NCBI GenBank assembly: GCA_963727505.1
Contig: CAVSGP010000004.1
Span: 544,001 to 608,000 of the forward strand
From: an uncultured Trueperaceae bacterium
GTDB taxonomy: Bacteria; Deinococcota; Deinococci; Deinococcales; Trueperaceae
DNA length: 64,000 nt
Direction of reading: 5' to 3'
The notes under the pieces were generated by a model. The model did not search any database. It had not been told where the DNA came from and saw only the letters and a program-made list of their open reading frames with translations. Shown here one piece after another: positions 14,130-54,689 of the stretch; position 1 is the stretch's first letter, and every line of letters starts with the position of its first letter. The translations under genes were made by a program, and so were the position numbers.

Positions 14130-14210
14130 GACCTCCTCCATGCCCAGTCTTCCAAGGAAGCCGAATCCGAATGGCGAAGCTCAACTGCTGCCGACTTATG
14201 CTTGGCTGAC

Positions 14211-15392
14211 ATGGAGCTCTCCTCACGCGCGATTGCTCGTAGAGCAAAGACGTTCCTCCGAAACCACGAACTTGGAATATTCGTGCCGGTCTTGCCTGGC
14301 CTGGAGCAGACGGCACTGGATGAAATCGAGGCGCTTGGCCACAATGCAATAAGAACCACTGGCGGAGTATCGCTCAGAGGCAGTCTCGCAACGGTATACG
14401 CAACCAATCTAATGCATCGGACTGGCAACCGGGTTCTCATACGCATCGACAGCTTCCTTGCTCAGAGCTACCCTATGCTCTACGATCACACAAAGAAACT
14501 CCCTTGGGAGATACTTCTAGGCAACTGCCCATATGTTGAGGTGAAGGTTGCCTTCGCACAGTCGCGGTTGCGAAACAAGAGTCACATCCGAGCTGTTGTC
14601 AGAGACGCCATTATTGACCGTTGCAAGCCTCTCGGGCTAGGTCCAGGGTTTGCGACACCAACCGGGGTCACGATCTTCCTACGACTTCATCAGGATAGGT
14701 GCACCATTAGCCTCGACTCGACTGGCACACATCTGCATAAGCGGGGATACCGAGTTGAGGAAGTCGCTGCACCAATTCGCGAGACGACGGCAGCAGGCAT
14801 CCTTTCGCTGGCAGATGCAAGCTCATACCAGGCAATCGTTGATCCATTTTGCGGATCAGGGACATTCTGCATCGAAGCAGAGATGCTTGTTCGAAGGGTC
14901 GCTCCGGGGCTGAAGCGTTCTTTTGCAATTGAACGCACACCGCTTCATTCGGCAGGGACCTATTCTCAAGTGCGGCGGGAAGTAGCTTCTCGCGAAATGC
15001 GTGCGCTCGGAGTTCGCATTCTGGGTAGCGACATTGAACCAAGAGCCGTGGAGTCCGCACATGCTGGACTTGCCCGTGCCAAGTGTTCTATCGCAAGGTT
15101 CCGCGTGTCAGACGCCTTGAACATCAATTTCCAATCGCTCAAGACGACAAGTGAACGAGGGCTGATTGTCGCCAACTTGCCATATGGGAGAAGACTTTCC
15201 ACACCAGCCGAGGTGCAGACCATGCTTGTCGAGTTCAAGGACCATTTGCTGACTCGCGGTGCGGGATGGGACTTTGCTCTCGTCACCGCTCACCCGGACA
15301 TCTTCGCGAACTCAGCACTCATGGTGAAGAGGCAAGTTGGATTCACCAATGGCGGATTGAGGGTGGTGGCGCTGTTGGGTGCTGTGCCTTAG
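14211..15392 (+). CDS. THUMP-domain class I SAM-dependent RNA methyltransferase (RlmL/YpsC-like)
   Basis: 'PGLE', 'ISLDSTG..LHKRGYR', 'APIRETTAAG', 'DPFCGSGT', 'ANLPYG'. Confidence 0.88.
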   Translation: MELSSRAIARRAKTFLRNHELGIFVPVLPGLEQTALDEIEALGHNAIRTTGGVSLRGSLATVYATNLMHRTGNRVLIRIDSFLAQSYPMLYDHTKKLPWEILLGNCPYVEVKVAFAQSRLRNKSHIRAVVRDAIIDRCKPLGLGPGFATPTGVTIFLRLHQDRCTISLDSTGTHLHKRGYRVEEVAAPIRETTAAGILSLADASSYQAIVDPFCGSGTFCIEAEMLVRRVAPGLKRSFAIERTPLHSAGTYSQVRREVASREMRALGVRILGSDIEPRAVESAHAGLARAKCSIARFRVSDALNINFQSLKTTSERGLIVANLPYGRRLSTPAEVQTMLVEFKDHLLTRGAGWDFALVTAHPDIFANSALMVKRQVGFTNGGLRVVALLGAVP

Positions 15393-15460: not shown

Positions 15461-16549
15461 TCAAGTGCGGTGATAGACAAGAAGTCCTTCAGCGGCGTTC
15501 GCTTCGTGCGTACCAAAGAAGGACGGGCTTCCAGCGCATTCGATCTTTCCGAGGAAATAGAGTCGCTCAAACTCGGCAACAAGCTCGGGATCAAACTGTG
15601 TCCTTGAGCCGTTGCGGACATATTGCAGTGCCTGCCTGGCGGGCATCGGGCTTCGATATGGGCGTTCACTAGTGAGCGCCTCAAATACGTCAACAATCGC
15701 AATTACGCGCGCAAGACGTGGTATCTCCTCCCCTTTGAAGCCAAGCGGGTACCCTAGGCCATCCCACCGTTCGTGGTGAGCACGAACGACATCTGCGATA
15801 GGACGAAATGTGACGGACACTGATGCAAGTAAGTCTGCCCCATATGAGGGATGCCGGCGAATCTCAGCGAACTCGTCCTCGGTCAGTCGGCCACTCTTCA
15901 GAAGGATATATTCGGGAACCGCTATCTTGCCCAGATCATGCAGTCTCGCTGCCCAATAGAGCACGGTCGTCTCTCTTGACGAAATGCCAAGCGCGTGTCC
16001 CATAACGAGCGCATTGCGTGCAACGCGCTCGCAGTGCCCTTGGGTGTGGTGGTCCCGAACCTCAACAGTGTTTGCAAGACTTGCAAGAACTCGTTGATAT
16101 CCTTCGAATTCTGCAACGCCACTTGCGCTCCTTCCCTGATGGCTTGGAGGCACATGTGCACGGGATACTAGCACTGTGGACATGCCTGCGAAGGTAGCGA
16201 ATACGGCACCCTGAAAAGCCCACCACCCAGTACCAGCGAAGGAATCCTGAATCTTCAATAACTGGTGCACTGCGATGGGAGAAACTAGCGCAATTGCGAC
16301 AACACTCGTGGCAAGGGCGCCAAGGACGCCGCCCCAGGCCGCGCCTACCAAAATCGGAAACAACATCGTCTCCGCCATCGCGGCATAACCAAACTCGATC
16401 CCCACGGCCCTGGTTGCAACCAGGAGGATGGCCGGCGCAAGGACGGCGAATGCTATGGCAGCTGAACGAATGCTTGGAAAGCCCGGCTCACGCGACCTCG
16501 TGCCTTGCAGGCGTAGATGCGAAGCCAATCGCCAGAGCGCGCCCCTCAT
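15461..16549 (-). CDS. Membrane-anchored HD-GYP domain protein (putative cyclic-dinucleotide phosphodiesterase); start uncertain
   Basis: 'HDLGK', 'HHERWDGLGYP', 'DVFEALTSERPYR', 'QFDP'; about four N-terminal hydrophobic segments. Confidence 0.88.
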   Translation of the reverse strand: MRGALWRLASHLRLQGTRSREPGFPSIRSAAIAFAVLAPAILLVATRAVGIEFGYAAMAETMLFPILVGAAWGGVLGALATSVVAIALVSPIAVHQLLKIQDSFAGTGWWAFQGAVFATFAGMSTVLVSRAHVPPSHQGRSASGVAEFEGYQRVLASLANTVEVRDHHTQGHCERVARNALVMGHALGISSRETTVLYWAARLHDLGKIAVPEYILLKSGRLTEDEFAEIRRHPSYGADLLASVSVTFRPIADVVRAHHERWDGLGYPLGFKGEEIPRLARVIAIVDVFEALTSERPYRSPMPARQALQYVRNGSRTQFDPELVAEFERLYFLGKIECAGSPSFFGTHEANAAEGLLVYHRT

Positions 16550-16662
16550 TGACTGTCCACCCCTCTGGGTACGCAAACACAGCGTGGTGAGGCGATAATC
16601 TGAGTTGAGCGCGACAAAGAAAAGCCCACGACATACGCCTCCTCTCGGCGTAGTCATAGACT

Positions 16663-16700
16663 AAAAGGCCGGCGCTTATGGACCACATAAACGCCGGCCT
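16663..16700 (-). terminator. Intrinsic terminator downstream of the small peptide gene
   Basis: Minus strand AGGCCGGCGTTTATG-tggtc-CATAAGCGCCGGCCT followed by TTT. Confidence 0.8.
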
Positions 16701-16779
16701 AGACAGACAAACTCTCAGTCATCTTGTGTCACTACATTATGACTCCGATGTAGCGATACCTAACGCCAGAAGACCGCCT

Positions 16780-16881
16780 TCAGCGTTGCGAGAAGTGCGA
16801 ACCTGCAGAGACAATTGCGGGCAAGCTGGCGACGAGTGCAAACACGATAGCCATGAAGATGCGCTTCCCTGTATTCTTCAT
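16780..16881 (-). CDS. Small secreted-type peptide (33 aa) MKNTGKRIFMAIVFALVASLPAIVSAGSHFSQR; below the ORF-track cutoff
   Basis: Strong SD (GGGAGGATGGGAGAAAT-ATG). Basic n-region, hydrophobic h-region and V-S-A cleavage motif. Has its own promoter and terminator. Confidence 0.65.
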   Translation of the reverse strand: MKNTGKRIFMAIVFALVASLPAIVSAGSHFSQR

Positions 16882-17127
16882 ATTTCTCCCATCCTCCCGA
16901 AACCCGTTTGCCGGGTAACGACATCTCTTCATCCACGGTCTCCCATACCGAGGATGCGCTTCTCAGGTCTCCCAACCTTGAAGCATTCTTCTGAGTCCAT
17001 CGGACTCAACGACTTGGAGCTGTTGGGGTTCTGTGGTCCAGACTCTCCCTGACTCAGCTCCCATCTCTTCCAACACCCGGGAAATCCCGGTAACCGATCA
17101 GGCCTCCCAACCAAATCGATTGGCGTT

Positions 17128-17156
17128 AGTGTACACACGACAGTGGCCTTCGTCAA
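17128..17156 (-). promoter_or_regulatory. Sigma70/SigA-type promoter for the peptide transcript
   Basis: Minus strand TTGACG-N17-TACACT. Confidence 0.75.
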
Positions 17157-17333
17157 GGGAAATCTAGCACTTCACGTGAACGTGTGTTTGCGTATATATG
17201 CTGTCCCCAACAGTGCGGGGCACTTCTGACTGTGGCGTACTTCGTCTAGTGGCCTCGGGGCCGTGTAATAGAATCTAGTGCACAGGAACTGTGCTGGGTA
17301 GGAGGATACCGGCAAATACCGCCGCAGCGATCA

Positions 17334-19005
17334 ATGACGAAAGAAGTCGAGCAGCTCGTTCGCGAAAAGTATCCTGGCGTCCAACTCGATAGTGACGTCC
17401 AAGCATGGGCGTTCCTTGAGGAGTTCGACAAGGGTGTAGAAGCGTACTCCAAGAAGGTCAACCCTACGCCCGCAGATGATCGATGGGTAGGCGTATGTCT
17501 ATTTCAGTTGGTGCGTGACTTGGAGGCGCTGGAAGCACTCTACCGGGCGTTGAACCGGGGTGAGCCGGCTGCTCGCGTAAACATCGCCCATGTGCTCAGA
17601 TTTGTGGAGCGCGCAGAAGACGCATCCGAAGAACTGAGCAAGGTGAAGCCCGAGCAATTCTCGTCTTCATATGACCAAGTCCTGTATTTCAGGGTGTTGA
17701 GCATACACGAGGAAAACAATGGCAACCTAAGGGAGGCACTTAGGTCTGCCGAGGAAGCGTGGCGCCGAATTCAGGGCATACCGGAGTTTGGGCTTCTTGC
17801 CCCCCCCATCCTTGCCCAGCTTGCGACACTTCACGGCAGAATTGGTAGGTCGCAACGAGCGCTCTGGTTCCTCGAACGGGGACTACAACTTACGTCTGGT
17901 GCCGAGCTTCGAAAGCTCCAGCTAAGGCGCGCTTACGTCCTGATCAGTCTCGGCCGTTACCAGGAAGCACAATCTGAACTCGAAGCCCTGGACTTGGCGC
18001 ACGCTCCAGATATCTTCCAGCCGGAACGTCATTGGCTTCTTGGAGAAGTCGCAAGGTCCAGGGGAAACCTCTCAACGGCAATCCACGAATACGAGCAGGC
18101 AATTGAATTGTCGGTTCAATTGCAGATGGGCTACGAGGAGTTCCTCAGGCCGAATCCCGCTCATGGCCATCCTTGGAAACCAGCGGTGACTTCAGTGCGG
18201 CCGCCGAGCATGCTGCACGTGCCCAGACGCTTATCTCCGACAAGTCTGACAGGCTGGAGTTCCGATTTCGGGAAGTCCTCCTGCTTTACTGGCAAAGCAT
18301 ACACACGAGTGAGCACGCCATCGATAGAACTCGATGCGCTGATTGATGAGCTTGGGGCAATGGGCCTCTTGAAGGAGCAGGGCCACGTCCAACTCCACAA
18401 AGCAGAGATCCTCCGTGTCGCCGGAGGCGCCTTCGAAGTTGAGCTTGATAAGCTTCAGGCACTAAGCGTTACACTTCAGAATCCGGCGTTCCTAGCGCCT
18501 GAATGGTCGCTACTGCATGCGCTTGAGGAAGTTGCCAGGCGAACTCATCCGCGCATTGCCGGTCGAGCGCATAGCGCGCTTCGGATTGCTACGTTGGGCC
18601 AAGAGCTCACTTGAACTAGATTCGAGGCCAGTCAACATCCCACTCCGCAAGGGCGTCGAAGTTCTTGCGTACTTCCTCGAAAACAAGGCCGTCACCCTCA
18701 AACAACTCCTCGCCGAGGTCTTCCCCGACGACAAACCCCGGAGCGCAAAGTCGTACTTCCACCAGTTCCGCCACCAGCTTCGAGAGAATGTGGAGGGGCT
18801 CGAGATCGAATACGACGGAGAGTCCAAGATGTACCGACTCAAGAGCGAGATCGACATCGTTTGGGACGTGTCGGAACTCCGCGCCGGCCGGATCATGGGT
18901 AAGACCGGGCTCTTCTTGCCGAGTTCTGGCAACGACTGGGCGCTCGCCGTCGATCGATCCTTGGATCCCTCCCGGGAGGCGGTCGGAGTCCTCGAGGTGG
19001 TCTGA
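17334..19005 (+). pseudogene. TPR-repeat protein with a C-terminal SARP/OmpR-like winged-helix domain, ~555 aa if four +1 insertions are removed (pseudogene or sequencing errors)
   Basis: TPR-like helices ('LISLGRYQEAQSELE', 'LLGEVARSRGNLSTAIHEYEQAIEL'). Alternative frames restore 'RIPLMAILG' and 'GDFSAAAEHAARAQTL'. C-terminus 'LRIATLG..LELD..EVLAYFLE..LLAEVFPD..FHQFRHQLR'. Confidence 0.72.
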
Positions 19006-19014
19006 AACAGCACC

Positions 19015-19047
19015 GCAGGCGGGCCACCGCCTGTGCTATTCTTGTTT
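19015..19047 (+). terminator. Probable terminator of the TPR-wHTH gene, overlapping an extended -10 (TGcTATTCT, 19034-19042)
   Basis: GCAGGCGG-gcca-CCGCCTGT stem followed by GCTATTCTTGTTT. Confidence 0.5.
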
Positions 19048-19048
19048 C

Positions 19049-19114
19049 GACGGAAGAGATGGTGGTTGGGAGATCCCGGAGCGGCGGTTGGGAGCCACAA
19101 GCTCCGGGTTTTTC
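19049..19114 (+). ncRNA. Candidate G/A-rich small RNA (~65 nt), possible sponge of the neighbouring UCCC sRNA
   Basis: Extended -10 upstream and terminator CCCGGAGC…GCTCCGGG-TTTTT. Carries CGGAAGAGATGG and two GGTTGGGAG motifs complementary to 19236-19265. Confidence 0.45.
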
Positions 19115-19180
19115 TGTGCCGTTGGGCGTTCGCTTCCAGAACCGCGAGCCGATCCCATGCCGACGGCCCGCCTGTCGGGG

Positions 19181-19214
19181 CTGTAAGAATCCTGTAAGAA
19201 TGCCTGGCTATACT
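19181..19214 (+). promoter_or_regulatory. Activator-type promoter: 11-bp-period direct repeat plus -10
   Basis: CTGTAAGAATC-CTGTAAGAATG. The second CTGTAAG ends exactly 10 nt before TATACT (19209-19214), the same geometry as a pho box. Confidence 0.65.
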
Positions 19215-19220
19215 CAAGTC

Positions 19221-19307
19221 GTGGACCTGAGGTAACTCTCCCAGTACCTCTTCCCATCTCTTCCGAACAACGGGCTCCGCGCCTCCCACGCGGAGTCCAA
19301 CTTTTTT
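19221..19307 (+). ncRNA. Candidate C/U-rich trans-acting small RNA (~87 nt) with three UCCC motifs
   Basis: Dedicated promoter upstream. Hairpin GAGGTA/TACCTC with loop ACTCTCCCAG, linker TTCCCATCTCTTCCGAAC, and terminator GGGCTCCGCG-cctccca-CGCGGAGTCC-AACTTTTTT. Confidence 0.6.
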
Positions 19308-54601: not shown

Positions 54602-54689
54602 TGGTGCCGAGGAGGGGACTTGAACCCCTACGACCTAAGCGGTCACTAGCCCCTCAAGCTAGCGCGTCTACCAATTCCGCCACCTCGGC
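54602..54689 (-). tRNA. tRNA-Leu (GAG)
   Basis: GCCGAGG acceptor stem, D-loop GGAATTGGTAGAC, anticodon loop TTGAGGG, long variable arm, GTTCAAG T-loop, encoded CCA. Confidence 0.97.

Follow-up and report, generated by a model that had tools for sequence, protein, structure and literature searches.

A candidate peptide-sensing module with a TPR regulator and a C-rich small RNA in Trueperaceae of the phylum Deinococcota

Comparative analysis of a 64,000-nucleotide stretch of the genome of an uncultured Trueperaceae bacterium, a soil bacterium of the Deinococcus group (genome G000, 3.26 Mb in 15 contigs, 97.4% complete; the whole stretch, G000:C4:544001-608000, is called the window, and coordinates without a contig name are counted within it), revealed a locus in which a gene for a 33-residue pro-peptide (16881-16783, minus strand) and a gene for a tetratricopeptide repeat (TPR) regulator (17334-19005, plus strand) diverge from an intergenic region of 450 bp. 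Two small terminated units follow the regulator gene on the plus strand (~19049-19114 and 19221-19307), the first encoding a G-rich small RNA and the second a C-rich small RNA (hereafter the sRNA), and are followed by rpsA, encoding a protein with five S1 domains (from 19539, plus strand). Beyond the peptide gene lie genes encoding an HD-GYP protein (15461-16657, minus strand) and an RlmL-like methyltransferase (14202-15392, plus strand). A first-pass annotation of the window had drawn the peptide unit, the TPR gene with its winged helix and the two small units as parts of one regulatory circuit, and these protein and RNA components are real and conserved in relatives. The locus is considered here as a candidate peptide-sensing module with an associated sRNA.

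Regarding the peptide gene, all elements of a stand-alone transcription unit, as the annotation had supposed, were located. The open reading frame (ORF) and its stop codon (16780..16881, minus strand; stop at 16782-16780) encode a signal-peptide-like product with a 7-residue tail and are preceded by a Shine-Dalgarno (SD)-like stretch, GGGAGGAUGGGAGA. A consensus scan placed a sigma-70-type promoter at 17128..17156 (minus strand; TTGACG, 17 nt and a TG-extended TACACT), of which the -35 hexamer and the TG-extended -10 are kept in an alignment of relatives, and an intrinsic terminator with a 15-bp stem including 9 GC pairs, followed by a T run, lies at 16666..16700 (minus strand).

A 33-residue ORF divergent from the regulator and 320-490 bp from the regulator start is present in 9/9 close loci. 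A scan of GTDB species genomes gave 39 regulator loci, 31 of them with enough upstream DNA for a check of the peptide, and the peptide adjoins the regulator in 30 of these 31 further Trueperaceae loci; 29 passed the filter, the thirtieth (L061) has the peptide ORF without a strong SD, and the sole exception is L071, where no peptide ORF was found. The peptide also lies beside regulators of 39-50% identity in G012, G015 and G024. Regulators of family f5 (22-23% identical) adjoin, in all three cases, a different ORF of the signal-peptide-plus-tail plan, with a signal-like N-terminus, Ala at -1, a Gly-rich tail of 15-18 residues and Arg at or next to the C-terminus. Weaker peptide candidates were found beside the regulators of G025b and G013, and none beside those of G025a and G033. 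Since peptide and regulator almost always occur together, they are taken as the core of the module, with the sRNA as a frequent neighbour that has a wider role. The HD-GYP gene, of the cyclic di-GMP phosphodiesterase type, lies directly downstream of the peptide-gene terminator, a position kept in 8 of the 39 scanned loci, in close relatives and in G012, and may encode an output partner of the peptide-regulator module.

Variability per position was computed over 31 distinct 33-residue peptides. Positions 1-9 (MKNTGKRIF) are essentially invariant, with 0-0.41 bit of variation, and this constraint acts at the protein level, because synonymous changes occur in the N-terminal codons. Positions 10-25 are hydrophobic and variable, with a helix-breaking Pro at position 21 in 25/31 peptides (-6 from the putative cleavage site) and V, A, G or S at position 24. 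Position 26 is an invariant Ala, position 27 is Gly in 29/31, positions 28-30 have the highest variability of all (2.5-2.8 bits), positions 31-32 are mostly S-Q and position 33 is an invariant Arg, so that 25 different tails are found among the 31 peptides. Cleavage by signal peptidase I follows the -3/-1 rule, and with small residues at -3 and -1 and an Ala-Gly junction, cleavage of the pro-peptide may release the seven residues G-x-x-x-S-Q-R. To judge from the aligned sequences, conserved anchors around a hypervariable core give this tail the look of signalling peptides with diverging specificity. The genome encodes 17 Opp/Dpp-type binding proteins, one of them inside the window, which indicates a capacity for re-import and no more than that. 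A prediction of the complex between the TPR domain (residues 1-410) and the 33-residue peptide, run with no controls, gave a score of 0.15 and a mark of 0.32 and speaks neither for nor against binding. In G012 the pro-peptide (L031:3851-3979, minus strand) has 43 residues and carries the tail motif AGLEHR twice, which recalls the tandemly duplicated pheromone pro-peptides that are a subject of PMC11343458.

The invariant N-terminal nonapeptide is unusual for a mere n-region and is left unexplained by a secreted-signal model, and a membrane-tether model is for this reason kept as the main rival. Here the 33-residue product would stay in the membrane as a single-pass micro-protein and tether or modulate the regulator, whose TPR domain would bind the invariant MKNTGKRIF on the cytoplasmic side, leaving the short outer tail as a variable appendage or sensing stub. 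TPR domains commonly bind short terminal peptides, positions 1-9 are near-invariant in the 31 peptides while the tail varies, as would follow from constraint on a protein, and the adjacency of peptide and regulator is equally strong under either model. The Ala-Gly junction, the small residues at -3 and -1, the Pro at -6 and the S-Q with its invariant Arg nevertheless fit a cleaved and recognised tail better, and invariant residues flank the three most variable positions of the tail, a pattern to be expected if these set specificity; a membrane tether is therefore regarded as rather unlikely.

Regarding the regulator gene (17334..19005, plus strand), which encodes a TPR domain (approximately residues 1-407) and a C-terminal winged helix of the SARP/OmpR type, the copy in the window is split over three frames, whereas in relatives the regulator is a single intact ORF of 554-556 residues. 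The window copy has four single extra bases (18147, 18183, 18324 and 18609), all of which are lacking in contigs of four public metagenome runs from two studies that are at least 99% identical here, and leaving them out restores an uninterrupted frame of 555 residues, identical to the G004 orthologue in 452/555 aligned columns. The frame breaks are thus most likely assembly errors, since the four runs lack the extra bases and the frame is then intact, and a pseudogene was ruled out on the same grounds; other apparent frameshifts in the window or genome may likewise be assembly errors. The metagenome contigs break or diverge within the regulator gene between 17839 and 18655 (loose ends at 17839, 18111, 18143 and 18619-18655), and in many metagenome-assembled genomes the regulator locus lies at contig ends, possibly because strains with variant receptors coexist. 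An apparent absence of the regulator in G005, G001, G009 and G008 was unusable, because contigs end at the locus or rpsA is lacking too. Metagenomes hold at least 246 homologues of the regulator. Homologues are annotated only as hypothetical or TPR proteins, and most of the named ones are labelled Trueperaceae, while a few bear the names of other phyla. The regulator is followed by rpsA in 22/39 loci. In genus g10 (G130, G131, G136 and G137; for example G131:C13:1164100-1165323), the homologues match only profile positions 1-414, with open frames of 413-457 residues and seemingly no winged helix, and the sRNA directly follows in three of the four.

Pfam searches with the regulator detected only generic TPR families in the TPR part and neither a Trans_reg_C nor a BTAD hit; the sole non-TPR match was NNH6 on the C-terminal 150 residues (29-30 bits, just above the cut-off), and no matches to membrane-protein families were found. 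A profile search of the PDB placed NprR at 2.5e-5 among generic TPR matches, and an f5 homologue gave a weak BTAD match (E 0.0018, below the cut-off). An AlphaFold2 model built with 43 homologues (pLDDT 91.7) has 23 helices over residues 5-407, a beta-alpha winged-helix unit at residues 413-514 and two terminal helices. The highest target-normalised TM-scores (TMt) from Foldseek were obtained with RapJ-CSF (0.74-0.77) and phage phi3T Rap with its pheromone (0.68-0.71), and a second look with VIA gave Z values of 29.9 for RapF-PhrF, 29.4-29.8 for phi3T Rap with pheromone, 28.9 for RapJ-CSF and 28.5 for NprR, rows within 1 Z unit counting as ties. Folded alone, the C-terminal domain (pLDDT 89.8) has the SARPs AfsR (8hvr_I, E 4.7e-4, TMq 0.68, root-mean-square deviation 3.3 Å) and EmbR as its nearest structures, followed by DNA-binding domains of the OmpR family (SaeR, VbrR, YycF, PhoP and PhoB). 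These matches bear out the earlier description of a TPR protein with a SARP/OmpR-like winged helix at its end, and the proposed pairing of a TPR receptor with a small peptide is supported both by the further loci and by distant homologues, the TPR fold being nearest to Rap and NprR. As for the operator of the regulator, a k-mer census and alignments of 29 and 13 intergenic regions yielded no convincing repeat, only RNA motifs and a -10-like CGTATAWW element.

The sRNA (19221..19307, plus strand; -10 at 19209-19214) begins with GUGGACC, followed by hairpin 1 (stem GAGGUA/UACCUC, loop CUCUCCCAG with CUCCCA), the unpaired linker UCUUCCCAUCUCUUCC and a terminator hairpin whose loop reads CCUCCCA, and thus presents three CUCCCA-type motifs in two loops and the linker. 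In an alignment of 12 copies from ten genomes (81% mean column identity), the structure has 16 pairs with 99% of cells paired and six pairs with changes on both sides, which 0/500 shuffles reach, while slid controls have 40-52% of cells paired. A covariance model matches 92/128 genomes of the family and 27/36 genera, often with 2-6 copies per genome, in a tally that takes in the unpublished genome G118. Rfam at gathering score returned nothing for the sRNA; the best matches were ar14 (E 1.3, 19.3 bits against a gathering score of 58.8) and FsrA (E 7.6, 15.4 bits against 80), and over the whole window the only match at gathering score is a tRNA (54605-54689, minus strand, 55.9 bits). The Rfam search sets the sRNA apart as a new family within a known kind, and the predicted transcript has the features of a trans-acting sRNA, namely its own promoter and terminator, a conserved structure and compensated complementarity to a target. 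Neither Hfq nor CsrA was found in G000 at its 97.4% completeness; the CsrA profile PF02599 had no match there, while a control search found it in three named genomes. The sRNA is probably chaperone-independent. A reading of the RNAs with GGGA loops as CsrA sponges was rejected because no CsrA was found in G000. A second, diverged copy of the sRNA lies at G000:C9:353798-353880 (plus strand, 39.6 bits); it has loops of CCCCC, half of a box and TAGAAT as its -10, and similar second copies are present in G002, G003, G006, G007, G008, G009 and G019.

The promoter of the sRNA (19181..19214, plus strand) consists of 11-bp direct repeats, CTGTAAGAATC and CTGTAAGAATG (19181-19202), 6 bp and the -10 TATACT. 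The repeat with 11-bp period that had been pointed out there is real, occurring once in the window against 0.01 expected. In the genome it belongs to a box of two 11-bp repeats, YYGTAAGAnnn, with TAnnnT 10-11 nt after the second GTAAG, found at nine promoters in G000: those of the sRNA, of pilT, of a minor-pilin operon, two heading three tandem pilin genes, and one each before a gene pair ending in pilB, a 74-residue ORF, a leader preceding an unassigned ORF, and a C-rich non-coding stretch preceding a thioredoxin-domain gene. Gene names in this list come from reading of the sequences and were profile-tested only where stated. Besides that of the sRNA, the box positions are C4:126372, C5:78284, C5:236587, C9:145534, C9:601055, C9:605728, C9:737513 and C9:738398. 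At G000:C5:236587-236760 (plus strand) the box promoter is followed by approximately 150 nt of C-rich non-coding sequence with a hairpin and then by the thioredoxin-domain gene, and this stretch may be another small RNA or a leader. In locus L015 (G017), a 2-kb insert between regulator and sRNA carries an oppositely oriented type IV pilin gene, a further physical link between the module and pilus genes.

The box is enriched across family f1 and in family f5, with 0-2 occurrences of a reversed control pattern in most f1 genomes. A response regulator of 350 residues with a receiver domain, a winged helix and a BTAD domain (REC-SARP; Pfam Response_reg 2e-24, BTAD 2.7e-6), encoded in G000 at C4:613240-614289 (minus strand), 5 kb past the end of the window, turned up in every box-rich genome that was searched, those of genus g28 among them. 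It was not found in G018 (0 boxes) or in f3 and f4, two families with 0-1 boxes, while f2 lacks boxes despite a homologue of 43-44% identity. In SARP targets the repeats are spaced by 11 bp, and 8 bp separate the 3' repeat from the -10 (PMC10936776). From this co-occurrence across genomes and the SARP-promoter-like layout, the box is probably bound by the REC-SARP response regulator and not by the TPR protein, and box and candidate activator would together define a type IV pilus regulon.

According to the first-pass annotation, the TPR protein itself senses the peptide and activates the sRNA via the CTGTAAGAAT repeat, and the sRNA then acts on the peptide mRNA. The SARP-like C-terminal domain would suit this, SARPs binding 11-bp direct repeats near the -10 (PMC10936776), as would a box immediately past the regulator gene in many genera and an sRNA adjacent to the regulator in 28/61 genomes. 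The winged helices of the TPR regulator and of REC-SARP are also distantly akin (27% over 113 residues, E 0.001), which makes overlapping specificity, and thus competition at the box, conceivable. The box promoters, however, head pilus genes, and boxes abound where the regulator was not found: three near-complete g28 genomes, in which neither regulator nor sRNA was found, have 16-20 boxes against 0-2 for the control pattern, G016, G014 and G021 have 16, 9 and 7, and in G023 a box lies directly upstream of the sRNA. Activation of the sRNA by the TPR protein through this repeat thus failed against a box that is shared with pilus promoters and tracks REC-SARP, and the circuit as first drawn is quite unlikely.

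The 5' leader of the peptide mRNA (16882..17121, minus strand; approximately 240 nt, with a start near 17121 deduced from the promoter) contains several UGGGAG motifs, and no other non-coding part of the locus is as well conserved. Complements of UUGGGAG are the most frequent 7-mers of the leader, CTCCCAA occurring in 29/29 intergenic regions, and a consensus fold places GGGA in hairpin loops. Read as its reverse complement, the whole sRNA runs collinear with the leader: UUGGGAGGCC (~-230) faces the sRNA terminator loop, GGAAGAGAUGGGAG (-190) the linker, AGGGAGAGU (-169) loop 1 and GGUCCAC the sRNA 5' end. Two sites stand out, a distal one formed by GGAAGAGAUGGGAG (17058..17071, minus strand; ~-190 from the AUG, 14 paired positions, -26.0 kcal/mol) and an SD-proximal one, UCGGGAGGAUGGGAGA (16885..16900, minus strand), where duplexes of -20.9 to -26.1 kcal/mol form at -15 to -21 in several genomes. 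The energy of the G000 linker with its own leader is reached by 4/500 dinucleotide shuffles, and the 14-mer complementary to the linker has, besides the sRNA gene, one site at no more than one mismatch in the 3.26-Mb genome, which is the leader at 17058-17071. Among ten pairs of linker and own leader (-26.0 to -36.0 kcal/mol), six have energies that at most 4/500 shuffles reach. Folding of the whole sRNA against leaders with no length limit gave long uninformative duplexes and was replaced by this analysis module by module.

Compensatory variants were detected at the distal site in G020, L046, L050 and L079 and at the SD site in L077 and L080. In G020 the linker CCCACCCUCUUCC (AUCUC to ACCCUC) is matched by the leader GGAAGAGGGUGGG (GAGAU to GAGGGU), with -35.9 kcal/mol for its own pair against -20.3 kcal/mol for the G020 sRNA on the G000 leader and -26.2 kcal/mol for the G000 sRNA on the G020 leader. 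In G024 and in L079, GUCCC pairs with GGGAC; L046 and L050 have 17 positions paired with one mismatch; in L077, ACCCAUCCUCUUU pairs with AGAAGAGGAUGGGU at the SD; the SD pairing of L080 includes one G-U wobble; and in G017 loop 1 is changed to CCCUCCC and the leader to GGGAGGG. Direct pairing of sRNA and leader at the distal site and the SD is on these grounds considered probable, and the earlier proposal that the sRNA acts on the peptide mRNA gains support from collinear complementarity with compensatory changes in several genera. Repression of translation would be the simplest outcome, and in this direction the effect is tentatively read.

The plus strand of the leader is itself weakly homologous to the sRNA in three loci of the first scan (27.6 bits in L047) and, with filters off, in six further loci (7-15 bits), which suggests an origin by inverted duplication. 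The complementarity could on this basis be a by-product of an old inverted duplication and of shared G-rich and C-rich composition, and the supposed sRNA could be mainly a leader, attenuator or protein-binding element tied to rpsA: most loci have a copy ahead of rpsA, among them G012, with its regulator at another place, and G014, in which no regulator was found, and the linker is pyrimidine-rich, as is the RNA that protein S1 binds. Against this, 2-6 copies of the sRNA per genome occur in other contexts, the sRNA has its own box promoter and a strong terminator, with rpsA starting 230 nt further on, and drift after a duplication would not produce compensatory changes at two leader sites in several lineages, so that this reading has little probability. 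It is very improbable that peptide and sRNA form a type I toxin-antitoxin-like pair, with the hydrophobic peptide as membrane toxin and the C-rich sRNA as a trans-encoded antitoxin acting at a standby-like site and the SD, since, for all the resemblance of a 33-residue hydrophobic product, a long structured leader and complementarity far upstream and at the SD to tisB/istR-1, such a pair leaves the link of peptide and TPR regulator in 30/31 loci unexplained, many genomes in which the peptide module was not found have the sRNA, which often lies away from the peptide gene, and a cleavage-site pattern with conserved tail ends is no feature of such toxins.

The G-rich small RNA (~19049..19114, plus strand) is preceded by an extended -10 of the TGnTAnnnT type, TGTGCTATTCT (19032..19042, plus strand), found in the same place in seven relatives, and contains CGGAAGAGAUGG, UUGGGAGAU and, inside its terminator hairpin, UUGGGAGCC. 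It is kept in eight genomes of three genera, in which GTTGGGAGC is invariant and the terminator encloses an invariant GUUGGGAGC. Promoters, terminators and conservation were thus found for both of the self-contained non-coding units that had been proposed, their transcription being predicted from sequence. The sRNA linker forms a duplex of -23.9 kcal/mol with the G-rich region, an energy reached by 1/300 shuffles, and the complementary vocabulary of the non-coding parts is accordingly above chance in G000 both here and in the leader. In five genomes of genus g1, 12 nt in the 5' part of the G-rich RNA are perfectly complementary to the linker (approximately -23.4 to -23.9 kcal/mol, reached by no more than 1/300 shuffles); in G003 the complementarity is weaker (10/300). 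The linker is invariant within g1, and the case for a sponge is one of conserved complementarity in one genus. Of the sponge proposed earlier, a conserved independent unit complementary to the sRNA in g1 has stood, while the complementarity fades elsewhere; a role of the G-rich RNA in titrating the sRNA is plausible on the base pairing.

Taken as a whole, the locus is read as an RRNPP-like peptide-sensing module under sRNA control, a reading given about even chances, which builds on the observed conservation and adjacency of peptide and regulator, on the folds and RNA structure, and on conserved and compensated complementarity. The small gene would encode a Sec-type pro-peptide, with its invariant MKNTGKRIF, hydrophobic core and -3/-1 motif, which would be secreted and processed so that the heptapeptide G-x-x-x-S-Q-R is freed, the three middle residues being lineage-specific. 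The divergent gene would encode a cytoplasmic receptor-regulator, with a Rap/NprR-like TPR solenoid of approximately 400 residues and a winged helix of the SARP/OmpR type, and the peptide, once re-imported, would bind in the TPR groove and switch DNA binding. Peptide output may be gated post-transcriptionally by pairing of the C-rich sRNA with G-rich leader motifs near -190 and at the SD, which would most likely block translation; the sRNA would be driven, probably via REC-SARP, by the direct-repeat box that it has in common with type IV pilus genes, and in genus g1 the G-rich small RNA would pair with the sRNA and may titrate it. A stronger form of this reading, in which Trueperaceae have genuine peptide quorum sensing with three-residue pherotypes, gated by an sRNA of the pilus regulon, and in one genus also by an anti-sRNA, so that cell density is coupled to pilus or competence behaviour, is doubtful at present.

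Several observations weigh against the reading of the locus as a peptide-sensing module under sRNA control. The case for secretion and cleavage is made of sequence rules. The likeness of the TPR domain to Rap and NprR is no proof of peptide binding, because TPR superhelices look alike: in the VIA comparison MalT domain III (Z 28.4) is tied with NprR, APC/C subunits reach 26.8 and AimR is near 22, and the AimR Pfam profile matches the regulator below its cut-off (E 0.057, 13 bits against 26.7). Of 61 regulator-bearing genomes, only 28 have the sRNA within 7 kb downstream of the regulator and in the same orientation, 24 of them within 1.5 kb; by comparison of genome tables these 28 span at least 14 genera. 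The other 33 are mostly fragmented assemblies with sRNA and regulator on different contigs, the two are clearly apart in G012, G058, G059 and G060, and in 15 further loci the sRNA was not found downstream of the regulator even with filters off. In genus g15 the sRNA was found in 5/5 genomes and the regulator in 0/5, and from the presence of the sRNA in genomes where no regulator was found it follows that the peptide mRNA can be only one of its targets. Regarding the pairing, the energies of the own pairs of G004, G002, G007 and G017 are reached by 25-39/500 shuffles and are not above chance, the distal site having central mismatches and the best site being the SD in these genomes; the background is inflated, because the leader is G-rich and the sRNA C-rich. 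The sponge complementarity is not above chance outside g1 (71/300 shuffles in G019, 48/300 in G020), and no G-rich unit was found in the five more distant loci L046, L050, L077, L079 and L080. No RNA run that contains the locus was found, all 5' ends are deduced from promoter consensus, and related genomes are non-independent observations, which bears on all counts of co-occurrence.

The candidate module resembles RRNPP(A) systems of the Bacillota (Rap, NprR, PlcR, PrgX, Rgg and AimR), a type of signalling between cells known chiefly from Gram-positive bacteria, in having a cytoplasmic TPR receptor beside a gene for a small exported pro-peptide, both predicted here, a short C-terminal part as the likely ligand, with conserved anchors and a variable core in the tail, and RapF, RapJ, phi3T Rap and NprR as the nearest solved TPR structures. 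It differs in that the DNA-binding domain is C-terminal (413-514) and a winged helix of the SARP/OmpR type instead of an N-terminal helix-turn-helix (HTH) or the Rap helix bundle, in the lack of a significant sequence match of the Trueperaceae regulator to RRNPP families, in the invariant N-terminus of the pro-peptide, and in its phylum, Deinococcota. The module is not to be filed as a member of RRNPP, because both an N-terminal HTH and a family-profile match are lacking. The stem 'Deinococ' is absent from the main texts of two RRNPP surveys (PMC9765709; PMC10075063), and peptide signals are assigned to Bacillota in the survey introduction.

Regarding SARPs, AfsR and EmbR are the best structural matches of the C-terminal domain, and AfsR combines SARP and TPR domains (PMC10936776), as the Trueperaceae regulator does. 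In contrast to large SARPs, the domain order is reversed in the Trueperaceae regulator, with TPR first and the winged helix last, and there is no NOD ATPase; its BTAD part is cut to two helices without a Pfam BTAD match, and the N-terminal layout of the SARP family is not found. The box is comparable to promoters of class II direct-repeat activators, such as the SARP afs box and the PhoB pho box, in which a pair of 11-bp repeats stands in for the -35 region, and in G000 the proximal repeat is conserved up to 9-10 bp before the -10. It is unlike them in the repeat, YYGTAAGA, in a regulon of type IV pilus genes and the sRNA, and in that the binding protein is deduced.

RsaE/RoxS of the Bacillota is an sRNA with C-rich loops, and the Trueperaceae sRNA is like it and the mycobacterial 6C in being short, with C-rich motifs in loops and linker aimed at G-rich, SD-like sequences. 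Chaperone-free target binding via C-rich loops is reported for 6C (PMC6486639). The Trueperaceae sRNA is set apart from both by sequence, phylum and box promoter and by one target leader that is an antisense-like copy of the whole sRNA. On pCF10 the peptide gene is likewise divergent from a TPR receptor gene, and the RNAs are cis-antisense products of overlapping operons. Pairing of prgQ and Anti-Q RNAs controls the peptide-signal gene at this PrgX pheromone locus (PMC3181467). Unlike in pCF10, the Trueperaceae sRNA comes from a gene of its own, encoded in trans at a distance of 2.1 kb and with its own regulon, and the intergenic promoters appear back to back.

A search of the openly accessible literature found no description of the module, the sRNA or the box, in agreement with the earlier remark that no such circuit is known in Deinococcota, and the RRNPP literature searched presents peptide signalling through cytoplasmic receptors as a trait of the Bacillota. 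With the sRNA, a new and widespread family is added to a phylum of which very little sRNA biology is known, and, unusually, compensatory changes seen by comparison already point to one target ahead of any experiment. The box and its candidate REC-SARP activator make up a directly testable type IV pilus regulon. The 25 tail variants among 31 peptides offer hypotheses of specificity, and the module would be a clean test case for the re-wiring of TPR sensors to new effectors. A conserved receptor and pro-peptide pair in Deinococcota whose DNA-binding output differs would extend peptide quorum sensing beyond its known range and, if peptide quorum sensing in the Trueperaceae is genuine, would mean an independent or anciently shared origin of RRNPP-style signalling outside the Bacillota, in the diderm Deinococcota.

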